Below, piece after piece: positions 10,535 to 14,443 of a stretch of 64,000 nt of DNA. Origin of the DNA: an uncultured Actinomycetes bacterium (GTDB lineage Bacteria > Actinomycetota > Thermoleophilia > Solirubrobacterales > Solirubrobacteraceae). Location of the stretch: positions 100,050 through 164,049 of the forward strand of contig CAVPQY010000005.1 of assembly GCA_963707695.1 (NCBI GenBank). Direction: 5' to 3'. Positions within the stretch are counted from its first letter, which is position 1, and each line of letters starts with the position of its first letter. The position numbers were made by a program, and so were the translations under genes. The notes under the pieces were generated by a model. The model was not told where the DNA came from and did not search any database. It saw only the letters and a program-made list of their open reading frames with translations.

Positions 10535-11738
10535 ATGGCGCGCGCGCCGGACCTCGAGGCCATCCGAGCCGACGTCGACGCGCTCGCCGGTCCCGGTGCC
10601 CCCGCGCGGACGTCGGCGCGCGCCGGCGAGCGTGCCGCCGCGCAATGGGCTCGCGACCGCCTCGACGCGGCCGGCGCATGCGACGCGCGGGTCCTGCCGT
10701 ACCGCGGTCGCGACGACCTACGGCTGGAGCTTCGCCGCCCACGCGCTCGCCGGCCTGGCGGGCGTGGTCCTCGGCGGTGCGCGGGGGGCCGCCCTCGCGC
10801 TCGCGGCCGGGTGGTCGCTCGAGCGCGACGCGAGCGGGCGCCCGCCCTGGCGCCGACGGCCGCCCCTCGGGCGTCCGACCGGGGCGGCGGCGCTCGCGCG
10901 CGTGCCCGCGTCGGACGGCGAGCGGCGGGCGACGATCGTCCTCGTGGCCCACGTCGACGCGGCCCGGACGGGGCTCGTCTGGGATCCGCGGGTGGTCCGC
11001 CTGGGCGCCGGCCGCCACCTGCGGCGCCGGTCCGTGGACGCGTTCCTGGGGCCGGTCGCCGGCGCCCTCGTCCTGGGGGCGGCCGGGTCGCTGGCCCGCG
11101 CGCGCGTCGCGCGCGTGACCGCGGGGGCCGTGCTCGCCGTCGCCGCGGCGCTCAACGCGCAGGTCGCCCGCGGCGCCACGGTGCCCGGGGCGAGCGACAA
11201 CGCCACCGGGGTGGCCGTGCTCCTCGACCTCGTCCGCGGGCTCGCCGCCGAGCCGCTGCCGGGGGTGGAGGTGCTCGCCGTCGCCCCGGGCGGGGAGGAG
11301 GCCGGGATGGGGGGCTTCCACGCGGCGCTCGACGCGCTCGCGCCGGAGCTCGACCCCGCCACGACGCTCGTCCTCGGGCTCGACACCCTCGGCGCGGGCC
11401 GGCCGGTCGTCGCCGCGAGCGAGGGCGCGGTCCGGACCCACCGCTACGTACCCGAGGACCTGGCGCTGGCCGACGCCGGCGCCGCCCGGGCGGGGGAGCC
11501 GGCGCCGGAGCGCTGGCGGATCGGCGGCTGGACGGACCCGGTCCTCGCGCGCCATCGCGGGCTGCGGGCGCTGTCGCTGCTGTCGATGGGCCCGGGGTAC
11601 TTCCCCGGCTACCACCACCCGACCGACGTGCCCGCGCGCGTCGACTGGGCGTCGGTGCAGGCCTGCGCGCGGGTCGCGGCGGGGGTGGTGGCCGTCGCCG
11701 CCGAGGCCCTCACAGGCCCGGCGGGTGGCGGACCGTGA
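10535..11738 (+). pseudogene. M28-family peptidase, frameshifted as sequenced (indel near 10706-10718)
   Basis: The N-terminus is in the frame of ORF 10535.. (MARAPDLEAIRADVDALAGPGAPARTSARAGERAAAQWARDRLDAAGACDARVLPYRG). The rest is in the frame of ORF 10464..11738 (TTYGWSFAAHALAGL...IVLVAHVDAA...PGASDNATGVAVLLDLVRGL...GGEEAGMGG...YHHPTD). Beyond the junction, each frame reads as Arg-rich nonsense. Confidence 0.7.
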
Positions 11739-12444
11739 ACCCGGAGACGGTGCGCAGCTCGGTCTGCCAGCGCGTCCCGGTGCCCTGGCGGCCGGACGTG
11801 TCGAAGCGCAGCCCCGCGACGGTCATGAAGGCGTGGCCGGCGTTGGCGAAGATCGTCACCCAGCGCCCGGGGCCGGGCCTCCCCCACCGGGCGAGCGCGG
11901 TGGAGTCCATCGGCTGGTCCACGAGGCCGGCTGTCGCGAGCGCGAACGAGACCGACCCCGAGCAGTCGTAGGCGGTGTCGATCCACGTCTCGCCGGCCAG
12001 GCGGCCGTGGCCGCCGCCGTAGACGTAGGGCTTGCGGGCGACCTCGTTGCCGCCGCGGATGATGTCGGCCACCCGCGCGGGCGCGCCCGGGGGCACCGTG
12101 GCCAGGCCGTCGGCGCGGACGCTGGCCGCGTCGACGAGGGCCTGCGTGGAGGCGCTCCCGCTCACCCCCAGGGCGCGACGCAGCTCGCGCGCGACCTCGG
12201 CGTCGGACGGCGCGCCGGCCGGAGGGACGGACGGCGCCTGCGCCACGGGCGTGGCCGGCCCGCTCGCGGCCCGCGGGCGCTCGGAGGCGTACGCCGACGG
12301 GTCGGGCGGGGGCAGCGCCGGGGCGCCCGTGGGCCAGGCCCGCAGGGCGGCCGACGGGCCGGAGCCCGACCCCTCCTGCGCGCAGCCCGAGGCGGCCGCC
12401 GCGAGGGCCAGCAGCACGACGGGCAACAGGACGACGCGCGCCAC
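11710..12444 (-). CDS. NlpC/P60 (C40)-like lipoprotein, putative cell-wall hydrolase
   Basis: Track ORF 11710..12597 trimmed to GTG 12444, giving the lipoprotein signal VARVVLLPVVLLALAAAASGC. The C-terminal domain reads KPYVYGGGHG...AYDCSGSVSFALATAGLV...ANAGHAFMTVAGLRFD. The start could instead be ATG 12504. Confidence 0.6.
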   Translation of the reverse strand: MARVVLLPVVLLALAAAASGCAQEGSGSGPSAALRAWPTGAPALPPPDPSAYASERPRAASGPATPVAQAPSVPPAGAPSDAEVARELRRALGVSGSASTQALVDAASVRADGLATVPPGAPARVADIIRGGNEVARKPYVYGGGHGRLAGETWIDTAYDCSGSVSFALATAGLVDQPMDSTALARWGRPGPGRWVTIFANAGHAFMTVAGLRFDTSGRQGTGTRWQTELRTVSGFTVRHPPGL

Positions 12445-12502
12445 GTGGGCAGGATGCCACGCCTCGGCGGTTGTCCCGCCCGTGCGGGGGTAGCGCCTGC
12501 CC

Positions 12503-13903
12503 ATGACCGCGCAAGACAAGCTCCTGCAGTACCTGAGCGAGGCCCACGCCCTCGAGGGTGCGCTCGTGCAGACCCTGACCGTGCACATCGCCGTCACCCC
12601 CGACGGGGCGTATCGCGACGTCCTCGAGCGTCACCTCCGGGAGACCCGTGACCAGGCGCAGGCGATCGAGCAGCGCCTCGGCGAGCTCGGCGTCACCCGC
12701 AACCCCTTCGCCCTCGGCCTCGGCATCCTCGAGGCCGTCATCGGCCAGGCCGTGGCCTTCGGCAAGGCGCCGCTGGATCTCGTGCGCGGCAGCGGCGGCG
12801 AGGAGAAGCTGCTGAAGAACGCCAAGGACGAGATCGCCTCGGAGGCGCTCGAGATCGCCACGTACGACGGTCTCGAGGCGCTGGCGGAGGCGGTCGGCGA
12901 CTCCCGGACGGCCGACCTCGCCCGCCGCCACCGCGCCCAGGAGGAGCGGGCGCTGCAGCAGCTCCGCGAGCTCATCCCGTCGCTGACGGAGGCCGTCGTG
13001 GCGTCCGACGTCCTCGGGATCGACACGTACGACGCGTCGGCGACCGGGGCGGCCGACGCCGCGCGCGCCGTCGCCCGCACCACGCGCGACAAGGCGGGCG
13101 ACGCGGCCCAGGCCGTCGAGGACACCGCATCGGACGCCACCTCGACGGCGCGCCGGACGGCGAGCCGCGCGCGCAGCGCCGCGCGCCGCACCACGTCGGG
13201 CTCGAGCTCGTCGCGGTCGCGCAGCGGCAGCGGCTCGTCGAGTCGCAGCACGTCGCGCGGCTCGGGCTCGCGCAGCTCGGGCGCCCGCAGCTCGGGCTCG
13301 CGCAGCACCGGCTCCCGGTCGGGCGGCTCGGCCTCGCGGGCCTCGTCGAGCGGCTCGTCGTCGCGCAGCACCCCGGCGCGCAGCTCCGGATCGTCGTCGC
13401 GGGCCGCCGGCTCGCGCAGCAGTGGCTCGTCCTCGCGGGCCAGCGGGTCGTCGTCGCGCAGCGGCGGGTCGAGCTCGCGGGCCAGCGGGTCGTCGTCGCG
13501 GGCCAGCGGGTCGTCGTCGCGCAGCGGCTCGTCCTCGCGGGCCAGCGGGTCGTCGTCGCGCAGCGGCTCGGGCTCGCGGAGCGGCGGCTCGTCGTCGCGG
13601 AGCAGCGGCTCGGGCTCGCGGAGCGGCGGCTCGTCCGCGCGGGCCAGCGGGTCGTCCTCGCGCGCCAGCGGGTCGTCGTCGCGCGGCAGCGGCTCGGGCT
13701 CGCGGAGCGGCGGCTCGTCCTCGCGCGGCAGCGGCTCGTCCGCGCGCAGCGGCGGCTCCGCCTCCCCGAGCACGGGCTCCTCGTCGGGCACGTCGTCCGG
13801 CTCGACGGGCACGTCCGGGTCGTCGGGCGCGTCGCGCGGCGGCTCCTCGTCGTCGGGTGGCTCGGGCGCCGGCACCAACGGGGCGTCGTCCTCGGGCTCG
13901 TAG
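12503..13903 (+). CDS. DUF892 (YciE/YciF ferritin-like) domain protein fused to a Ser/Arg/Gly-rich low-complexity tail of about 235 aa
   Basis: Track ORF 12503..13903. The N-terminus reads MTAQDKLLQYLSEAHALEGALVQTLTVHIAV...HLRETRDQAQAIEQRLGELG...AKDEIASEALEIATYDGLEALAEAVGD.... From about nt 13193 the same frame continues without a stop as reiterated SSSR[A/S]SG heptads (SGSSSRASGSSSRSGGSSSRASGSSSRASG...). Confidence 0.7.
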   Translation: MTAQDKLLQYLSEAHALEGALVQTLTVHIAVTPDGAYRDVLERHLRETRDQAQAIEQRLGELGVTRNPFALGLGILEAVIGQAVAFGKAPLDLVRGSGGEEKLLKNAKDEIASEALEIATYDGLEALAEAVGDSRTADLARRHRAQEERALQQLRELIPSLTEAVVASDVLGIDTYDASATGAADAARAVARTTRDKAGDAAQAVEDTASDATSTARRTASRARSAARRTTSGSSSSRSRSGSGSSSRSTSRGSGSRSSGARSSGSRSTGSRSGGSASRASSSGSSSRSTPARSSGSSSRAAGSRSSGSSSRASGSSSRSGGSSSRASGSSSRASGSSSRSGSSSRASGSSSRSGSGSRSGGSSSRSSGSGSRSGGSSARASGSSSRASGSSSRGSGSGSRSGGSSSRGSGSSARSGGSASPSTGSSSGTSSGSTGTSGSSGASRGGSSSSGGSGAGTNGASSSGS

Positions 13904-13928
13904 CACCGGAATCCGGTCTGAACTCGGT

Positions 13929-13954
13929 CCGCCGGCGCCCTGGGGTGCCGGCGG
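13929..13954 (+). terminator. GC-rich hairpin downstream of the DUF892 gene
   Basis: CCGCCGGC-gccctggggt-GCCGGCGG, an 8-bp stem, about 25 nt after the stop. There is no clear T-tract. Confidence 0.35.
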
Positions 13955-14026
13955 ACGCCGTTCGGGCACGGTCCGCGTCGGGACGGCCGTGCTTGGGCGG
14001 CCACCGCGACCGGGCAGCCACCTCCC

Positions 14027-14443
14027 ATGGCCCACGACACCCGCAGCGCGCCGGGCGACGTGCTCGTCGCCCTCGATCCGCGGCCGGAGGCGGGGCGGCG
14101 CGCGCGTCAGGCGCTCGTCGACGCGGGCTTGGCGGAGGACATCGCGCACGCCGTCGACCTGCTCTCGACCGAGCTCGTGGCCAACGCCGTGCGCCACGCC
14201 GACATCCCCGAGGGCGGCCAGATCATGTTCTTCGCCCACCTCGAAGGGGACTTCGCCCGCGTCGAGGTCGCCGACCCCGGCGCCGGGTTCGACCCCGACG
14301 CCGTCGATCACGGGTTCGGCCTGCGCCTGGTCGACAAGGTCGCCAGCGCCTGGGGCGTGGACGCCACGAAGGGGTGCCGGGTCTGGTTCGAGGTCGACCG
14401 GCGGACGCGGAAGTTCCGCCGCGCCGTCGGCGCCGCGCCCTAG
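14027..14443 (+). CDS. ATP-binding protein, anti-sigma-factor/RsbW-like serine kinase fold (HATPase_c_2)
   Basis: Track ORF 14027..14443. It reads AVDLLSTELVANAVRHA...ARVEVADPGAGF...GFGLRLVDKVASAWGV...VWFEV. Confidence 0.6.
   Translation: MAHDTRSAPGDVLVALDPRPEAGRRARQALVDAGLAEDIAHAVDLLSTELVANAVRHADIPEGGQIMFFAHLEGDFARVEVADPGAGFDPDAVDHGFGLRLVDKVASAWGVDATKGCRVWFEVDRRTRKFRRAVGAAP

Follow-up and report, generated by a model that had tools for sequence, protein, structure and literature searches.

A DUF892 ferritin-like protein with a long basic Ser/Gly/Arg tail in an uncultured soil actinobacterium of the Solirubrobacterales

The gene and its product

The window analysed here is a stretch of 64,000 nucleotides (nt) of contig CAVPQY010000005.1 (assembly GCA_963707695.1, positions 100,050 to 164,049 of the forward strand), which belongs to a high-GC metagenome-assembled genome (MAG; contigs 70-76% G+C) of an uncultured soil actinobacterium of the order Solirubrobacterales. 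Our subject is a complete coding sequence of 466 codons and a TAG stop at 12503..13903 of its forward strand, taken from a list of open reading frames (ORFs). It specifies a stress protein of two parts, a ferritin-like head of the DUF892 family (YciE/YciF type) and, behind a linker, a tail of 237 residues built mainly of Ser, Gly and Arg. The analysis confirmed that this ORF is one genuine gene, and we consider it very probable that the product of 466 amino acids (aa) is real. Its N-terminus, MTAQDKLLQ, is common to relatives with 75-96% identity in the domain. The first-pass annotation, made from the letters of the DNA, had described a DUF892 domain in the first ~165 residues, followed in the same frame by an Ala/Thr/Asp-rich linker and about 235 residues of Ser, Arg and Gly. 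This outline holds: the frame is open past the domain and runs through linker and tail to codon 466, and 87% of the tail is Ser, Gly or Arg (Table 1).

The Pfam model of DUF892 (PF05974) matched the head at aa 2-164 (E-value 1.5e-12; 48.3 bits, where the cut-off is 23.7) and is covered from position 1 to 156 out of 159; the Pfam search found no other domain in the protein. An AlphaFold2 model based on a 26-sequence alignment has helices over residues 3-171, with a predicted local distance difference test (pLDDT) score above 90 except in the 65-100 loop. Compared with the PDB by Foldseek, the model is closest to XCC3681 (3hiu), YciF (2gs4, 4eru) and YciE (3ogh), with target-normalised template-modelling (TM) scores of 0.70-0.90, and Dps and the bacterioferritins rank below YciE/YciF. 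Among 26 homologues the columns E13, E18, H44 and E147 are invariant, and E47, E114, E117 and E148 are conserved in at least 90%; the window motifs EAHALE, ERHLRET, EALEIATY and QEE align with DAHAME, EQHLSET, EQFEIACY and EE of YciE. By sequence, predicted fold and ligand columns the protein is assigned to DUF892, and the Glu/His columns of its di-metal site are, as read from the alignment, retained in the head. The sole member of the family for which we found a functional study in the literature is Salmonella YciF, an oligomeric, iron-binding ferroxidase with an activity that depends on the di-metal site (bioRxiv 10.1101/2023.01.20.524870).

The linker of 64 residues (Ala 20, Arg 9, Asp 8, Thr 8) carries a subfamily motif, Y-D-x3-TGAADAAR, that is kept in same-genus relatives and in metagenome homologues. 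A helix is predicted in it at aa 183-229 (pLDDT 70-83), turning Arg-rich (ARRTASRARSAARR).

The composition of the tail is extreme: 122 Ser, 54 Gly, 30 Arg, 18 Ala, 10 Thr, 2 Pro and 1 Asn (Ser 51.5%, Gly 23%, Arg 12.7%), with no Lys, Asp or Glu; it has an isoelectric point of 12, a net charge of about +30 and a grand average of hydropathy (GRAVY) of -0.99. The arginines are spaced at one per 5-7 residues, and a parse by this spacing yields 16 heptads of the form [A/S/G][S/G]GS[S/G][S/A]R and 6 pentads xSGSR. Only one Arg occurs in the last 51 residues, which end ...NGASSSGS. From residue 232 to 466 pLDDT stays below 50 and the AlphaFold2 model has no secondary structure. The tail is thus predicted to be intrinsically disordered, and the earlier description of it as strongly basic and disordered agrees with these values. 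The start of the repeats needs to be revised: 21-nt units had been placed from about 13193, where the Ser/Arg composition does begin (near 13190), while the strict 21-nt periodicity sets in some 200 nt later, its array extending over 13411-13786 with units that are 75-81% alike (Tandem Repeats Finder). Tail parts outside the repeats match the repeat parts in composition, and encode their Ser by AGC as well as by TCG/TCC codons.

Table 1. Features of the DUF892 gene and of the sequence directly behind it, in window coordinates
Feature	Position	Strand	Basis
Coding sequence: DUF892 domain, helical linker and Ser/Gly/Arg tail	12503..13903	+	ORF list; termini common to relatives
DUF892 (YciE/YciF-type) ferritin-like four-helix bundle, aa 2-164	12506..12994	+	Pfam, AlphaFold2, Foldseek, Glu/His columns
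Linker, aa 166-229	12998..13189	+	Composition; predicted helix; conserved motif
Low-complexity tail, aa 230-466	13190..13900	+	Composition; pLDDT <50
15-nt tandem repeat, 4.1 copies, xSGSR pentads	13253..13314	+	Tandem Repeats Finder; unit parse
21-nt tandem repeat, ~18 copies (42-nt super-period, 8.4 copies), heptads	13411..13786	+	Tandem Repeats Finder, score 311/346
Nearly uncharged Ser/Gly/Thr end, aa 416-466, single Arg	13748..13900	+	Composition; ending kept in relatives
GC-rich hairpin, 13-bp stem, 4-nt loop	13927..13956	+	RNA fold; conserved in C3 and L021

Reading frame and length of the tail

No stop interrupts any of the six frames across the tail, a caveat that the first-pass annotation had already attached to its assignment. 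Codon statistics are uninformative here because two of the three codon positions in the tail are ~100% G+C. The G+C content of the first, second and third codon positions (GC1/GC2/GC3) is 0.44/1.00/0.98 in the Ser/Arg frame and 1.00/0.44/0.98 in the antisense frame, and it is the antisense frame that matches the usual pattern of the genome; with GC3 at ~1.0 in four of the six frames, this measure was rejected as a means of choosing between them.

Homologues are more informative. Five of them (P0012, P0014, P0023, P0030 and P0034) have a Ser/Arg (S/R) tract that is followed, in frame, by a conserved domain PWPGYD...YER.H..R, which shows that translation in the family follows the S/R frame. The window gene, its counterpart in a sister haplotype of the same assembly (on contig C3) and a homologue from another metagenome (L021) all end in GASSSGS-TAG followed by a conserved GC-rich hairpin, and the ending is also found in P0006 and, more loosely, in P0009. 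These sequence comparisons support a tail that is read in the Ser/Arg frame, in one gene with the DUF892 head. The original assignment, which was made by continuity with the N-terminal domain, is in agreement with them.

The opposite strand holds a shadow ORF of 469 codons (12631-14040) with an Asp/Glu/Pro/Leu-rich DDDPLAR(E/D) repeat and no Pfam match, which a gene finder could wrongly prefer. If the tail belonged to this ORF and the protein ended near residue 230, or if a frame error had arisen in the long-read assembly, the long tail would be an artefact. Such an explanation can draw on the open antisense frame with its typical GC1/GC2/GC3 pattern, on frameshifts in the tails of P0005, P0006 and L021 (all from other assemblies), and on the failure to find the exact 466-aa product in the protein collection. 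We nevertheless regard it as extremely improbable. Neither in the window nor in C3 does a sense-frame stop follow the domain. The antisense ORF, for its part, would cross at least 370 nt of the DUF892 domain on the opposite strand, and its upstream part spans the intergenic hairpin, where L021 has a 1-nt indel; some lower-GC relatives have stops in their antisense frames. The Ser/Arg composition is unbroken over 237 codons, so that there is no internal frameshift in the window, and in homologues the S/R frame runs into a folded domain.

The gene calls of P0004/L021, P0005 and P0006 leave the Ser/Arg frame within the tail and sometimes return to it, producing Ala/Arg/Leu-rich chimeras, which may stem either from misassembly of a GC-rich repeat or from true frameshift alleles. 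As a practical matter, six open frames combined with an error-prone repeat lead gene callers to frameshifted chimeras (as in P0005, P0006 and P0004), and comparative checks are needed.

The length of the tail changes rapidly between close relatives. In the sister haplotype, which is ~90% identical, the gene (C3:1125333-1126340) encodes 335 aa; it shares head and linker with the window gene and has an S/G/R tail that is exactly 131 codons shorter, the 21-nt array being the stretch that is largely missing. A difference of a whole number of codons also speaks for the Ser/Arg frame. L021, an independent metagenome contig with a domain ~96% identical and the same neighbours as the window gene, spans 1282 nt from start to stop, corresponding to 427 codons plus 1 nt (3n+1); a single frameshift breaks its S/R frame, which resumes and ends ...NGASSSGS-TAG. 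Relatives with heads at least 90% identical thus have 466, ~427 and 335 codons, and 282-294 codons occur in the calls of other relatives, which are possibly partial or frameshifted. That the repeat DNA would be a site of length variation had been foreseen from the sequence, and the comparison bears this out. The units are 15 and 21 nt long, and slippage therefore alters the length and not the frame; the repeat is not a phase-variation switch.

Between the two haplotypes, substitutions at codon positions 1/2/3 number 9/2/27 in the domain, where the pattern is clear, 10/6/17 in the linker, which is more relaxed, and 15/6/12 in the tail. As a test of the tail frame these counts were set aside, 15/6/12 being ambiguous because the repeat alignment is unreliable.

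The 167-kb contig of the window (C5) is colinear over ~158 kb with the end of C3 (C3:1005488-1176468) at 86-97% identity, and the MAG (4.3 Mb, 89% complete, contamination 6.8%) therefore holds two related haplotypes or strains of this region. The last 9 kb of C5 also match C1:28889-37864 at 97.8%. "Paralogues" counted in this assembly may be alleles.

Tails, modules and neighbouring genes

A search with the full-length protein, which is biased towards tails as it was word-seeded and length-limited, returned 790 homologues of at least 256 aa. Their extensions have a net charge of at least +10 in 103 of the best 120, and consist to at least 60% of S, R, G, T or K in 93 of these. The relatives stem almost exclusively from MAGs of Solirubrobacterales or Thermoleophilaceae, with Conexibacter and Paraconexibacter in addition. 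Basic tails of the Ser/Arg, Thr/Arg or histone-H1-like Ala/Lys/Pro (AKP) type occur in hundreds of DUF892 proteins from the Thermoleophilia. For an unbiased search, 192 aa comprising only the head and a portion of the linker were compared with 1.84 billion cluster representatives, and 1009 matches were returned. Of the 150 best, at least 57 carry a small folded module that we refer to as "GYD...YER" (several of those binned as "other" carry variants), 14-19 have a basic S/T/R/K tail and 13 have no tail.

This module, (P)W/I-x-GYD ... YER-x-H-x-x-R, has ~45 residues, is predicted to form three helices (pLDDT ~90) and is often found in tandem. It corresponds to the precomputed family PF26450 and gives a weak, partial match to NCBIfam NF033649 (LipDrop_Rv1109c, mycobacterial lipid-droplet-associated; E 2e-8, 34 bits against a cut-off of 110), the only lead to an annotation that it offers. 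No significant sequence match to it was found in the PDB. An attempt to identify the module by Foldseek with a whole model was discarded, as the ferritin-like head dominated the matches. Copies in the same genome lie at C2:525135-526017, C3:605893-606186, C5:31493-31636 and C7:161619-161780, and the homologues that bear it include P0015, P0034 and L002-L010.

Two subfamilies can be distinguished. Subfamily A, which has the TGAADA linker motif and includes the window gene, usually ends in one or two of the folded three-helix modules; a clade within it (P0001-P0010, 75-96% domain identity) has an S/R tail in place of the module. Subfamily B is ~45% identical, has an EIPAxER motif directly before the tail, and carries as a rule basic tails of 40-150 residues with charges from +9 to +36. 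These are composed of S/R, T/R or AKP/AKAKPA repeats within the same genus and order: P0059 and P0097 have S/R tails, L014 has a T/R tail, and L109 and L110, from same-genus genomes, have Ala/Lys/Pro tails of the AKAKPA type, while P0046 has RKAST repeats with a sub-threshold match to HC2 (histone-H1-like). A subfamily-B paralogue was not found in this 89%-complete assembly. All these tails have a positive net charge, hardly any acidic residues and low complexity in common, and their Ser content varies. H1-like and S/R tails are interchangeable within DUF892. The tail had been called very unusual for a bacterial protein. Within this lineage that view cannot be upheld, given the frequency of charged extensions among the best homologues of the tail-biased search and the S/R-rich tails that are the rule in subfamily B.

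A strict screen of the 4.3-Mb assembly for S/G/R tracts gave six matches. Two of them, the DUF892 copies, contain the only long pure tracts; the remaining four have the look of short translations out of frame. Looser criteria for S/R tracts produced hundreds of off-frame artefacts genome-wide, and only the strict screen was usable. A protein database search with the tail alone gave no match, probably because the sequence is of low complexity. Public databases already hold the DUF892 plus Ser/Arg tail architecture, under "DUF892 family protein" or "ferritin-like metal-binding protein YciE". No paper on these DUF892 tails or on the two tail types was found, and nothing relevant came from searching the literature for DUF892 in combination with Solirubrobacter or for ferritin-like proteins with a Ser/Arg tail.

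It might be argued that such a tail is a largely neutral run-on, an in-frame GC-rich microsatellite that expanded at the 3' end and is translated and tolerated without being selected. The genome has roughly 75% G+C and few stop codons, and all six frames are open across the tail. The array is young, with units 75-81% alike, and is mostly missing from the ~90% identical haplotype; the tail evolves fast without the clear third-position excess seen in the domain (15/6/12 compared with 9/2/27). Even so, we consider this unlikely. S/R tails have been kept through a clade in which domain identity falls as low as 75% (P0001-P0010), and they appear anew in subfamily B. Relatives retain the C-terminal ...GASSSGS as well as the stop; the tail excludes acidic and hydrophobic residues along all of its 237 codons; and the non-repeat parts of the tail share the composition while using both AGC and TCG/TCC codons for Ser.

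Behind the gene, the hairpin listed in Table 1 begins 24 nt after the stop and lacks a T-run, and a second hairpin extends up to ~14001; the segment 13895-14030 has an RNA folding energy of -82.8 kcal/mol (z -2.85). A scan for consensus terminators, in which a T-run was required, found none. The first hairpin is likely to mark the transcript end. The next gene (14027-14443, forward strand) starts 123 nt downstream and encodes a 138-aa HATPase_c_2 protein with the fold of RsbW/anti-sigma-type Ser kinases; it has the same arrangement in L021 and is absent from this position in more distant relatives. The divergent upstream gene (11710-12597, reverse strand) has no Pfam or NCBIfam match, and was read from its sequence as a putative NlpC/P60-like lipoprotein (DCSG motif, lipobox LAAAASGC). 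The longest version of its ORF overlaps the beginning of the DUF892 gene; if translation started at a GTG near 12447 (MARVVLLPVVLL...), a divergent gap of 55 nt would remain, in which no recognisable sigma-70-type promoter is present. The flanking genes, namely those for the NlpC/P60-like lipoprotein, the RsbW-like HATPase_c_2 protein, DUF427, a DsbA-like protein and an M28-like peptidase, are common only to the nearest relative, L021, apart from the NlpC/P60-like one, which also matches the distant L022. They provided no functional clue.

Proposed role and comparison with known systems

Of several possible roles for such a protein, we favour, with a probability of roughly 0.45, a division of labour like that in Dps, where a di-iron four-helix bundle would be tethered by a polycationic disordered tail to the nucleoid, to RNA or to polyphosphate. 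By analogy with Salmonella YciF, the head would assemble into oligomers, bind Fe(II) and oxidise it, and its di-iron site would detoxify Fe(II) and peroxide chemistry. The tail would bind polyanions electrostatically and without sequence specificity, DNA in the first place and RNA or polyphosphate as alternatives, with the nucleoid as the likeliest partner. The oligomeric head would then be held on the very material that it protects, perhaps condensing it. The 15- and 21-nt in-frame repeats expand and contract by slippage or unequal recombination, so that the tail drifts fast in length while its composition and the sign of its charge are kept. What the analysis shows is the structure of the gene, its frame, the class of fold, a prediction of disorder, basic tails across the family and fast change in length, and we infer from there the iron chemistry, the oligomerisation and the binding partner. 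Some precedents are of interest here: Dps binds DNA via disordered N- or C-terminal tails (PMC13319912 and PMC9103930), and the PAKKA tail of MLDS from Rhodococcus jostii binds DNA without sequence specificity (PMC5504291). The exchange of H1-like for S/R tails within DUF892 itself is a further one.

A number of observations weigh against such a tethered role. The charge density of the tail is ~+0.13 per residue, compared with roughly +0.4 for tails of the H1 and PAKKA type, and binding may therefore be weak or need the avidity of an oligomer; the final ~50 residues carry almost no charge, a feature for which a pure DNA tether gives no explanation. In most of the nearest relatives the "GYD...YER" module replaces the S/R tail: in the best 80 species-representative genomes the module is found 74 times and a basic tail about 5 times, and none has a pure S/G/R tail like that of the window protein. 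The module also occurs in the same genome as free-standing small genes and on other N-terminal regions. As most relatives carry this module, with its weak lipid-droplet lead, the C-terminal partner may be something other than DNA. Three canonical ferritin-family (PF00210) genes are present in the genome, so that there is no functional gap to fill, and the idea that the protein substitutes for a missing Dps is rejected. Finally, the public protein collection that was searched does not contain the exact 466-aa product, so that no independent gene call for it was seen.

The tail might instead have no specific ligand and act in the manner of hydrophilins and late-embryogenesis-abundant (LEA) proteins or as an "entropic bristle", keeping the ferritin-like oligomer in solution and serving as a water-replacing or anti-aggregation shield in desiccation, osmotic stress or stationary phase. 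We rate this as doubtful, although several observations speak for it. The tail, predicted to be disordered, has 23% Gly and a GRAVY of -0.99; the DUF892 family is one of stress proteins; and the organisms concerned are soil Solirubrobacterales. In Escherichia coli, yciE and yciF share an operon with yciG, which encodes a small, Gly-rich hydrophilic protein. On the other hand, hydrophilins and LEA proteins are usually of mixed charge, whereas what the DUF892 tails share throughout the family is a positive net charge and an almost complete lack of Asp and Glu, and relatives use AKP/H1-like repeats that are typical of DNA binders. Hydrophilins are defined over the whole protein by more than 6% Gly and a mean hydrophilicity index above 1; the whole protein, with a GRAVY of -0.64, falls below this, and the tail taken alone is borderline.

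A more elaborate proposal is that the tail is a bacterial condensate scaffold that can be tuned by phosphorylation. In an unphosphorylated tail under stress, the ~30 evenly spaced arginines would make the ferroxidase oligomer condense together with DNA, RNA or polyphosphate; once some of the 122 serines were phosphorylated, the charge would be reversed and the assembly would dissolve. The candidates for this phosphorylation would be Ser/Thr kinases or, as a more speculative option, the downstream RsbW-like HATPase_c_2 protein, and the threshold would be tuned by tail length, as set by repeat expansion. We regard this reading as quite improbable.

Returning to the tethered di-iron protein, its wider interest is that DUF892 is a widespread and poorly understood family of stress proteins, and that in the Thermoleophilia its domain is almost never alone, being accompanied by a polycationic disordered tail or a small folded module. 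The tail is a low-complexity appendage that offers a testable clue to where DUF892 proteins act, namely tethered to a polyanionic structure of the cell. If this is true, the Dps principle of a ferritin-like head with a basic tail extends to a second branch of the superfamily. Arg set in Ser and Gly is, moreover, a rare composition for bacterial cytoplasmic proteins, and such tails form a natural series for studying the effects of charge density in disordered tethers.

Among known proteins, YciE and YciF (PDB 3ogh, 2gs4, 4eru) are matched by the N-terminal 165 residues in Pfam model, fold and di-metal columns, at a sequence identity of only ~17-23% to the solved structures. The enterobacterial proteins, however, have ~165-170 aa and no tail, whereas the window protein continues for another 300 residues. 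The closest relatives of head and linker (50-64% identity, same TGAADA motif) are the DUF892 proteins with one or two folded "GYD...YER" modules of ~45 residues where the window protein has its tail, and some homologues carry both an S/R tract and the module.

The tail was initially thought to be reminiscent of eukaryotic SR domains. The likeness is one of composition, both being Ser- and Arg-rich, disordered and potentially phosphorylatable, and it does not go further. RS domains are recognised by ~40% or more of consecutive RS/SR dipeptides, with Arg nearly as abundant as Ser; in the window tail Arg makes up 12.7% against 51.5% Ser, with 23% Gly, 30% of the residues lie in RS/SR dipeptides, and Pfam found no RNA-recognition motif (RRM), so that identity with an RS domain is ruled out.

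The PAKKA/H1-like tails of Hlp/HupB and MLDS (PMC5504291) resemble the window tail as C-terminal low-complexity polycations on unrelated N-terminal domains in Actinomycetota, and the same-genus DUF892 paralogues L109 and L110 carry AKAKPA-type repeats. The window tail differs in having no Lys, which rules out membership, no PAKKA motif, only 2 Pro and a charge density about three times lower. MLDS itself is an analogue and not a homologue, as the paper describes a lipid-droplet-targeting N-terminus with PAKKA repeats and does not mention ferritin or a connection with DUF892 (PMC5504291).

Dps shares the superfamily fold and the layout of a head with a disordered basic tail, which in Dps binds DNA without specificity (PMC13319912 and PMC9103930). 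The window protein is not itself a Dps, as it has no match to PF00210 (Ferritin/Dps) at E <= 0.01, some homologues giving weak, sub-threshold ones, and Dps ranks below YciE/YciF in Foldseek. The family differs, and probably the oligomer too; Dps tails are Lys-rich and ~10-50 residues long, in contrast to 237 residues with Arg as the only basic residue, diluted in Ser and Gly. By analogy with these systems, the window protein plausibly works as a tethered protector of the Dps or Hlp type.

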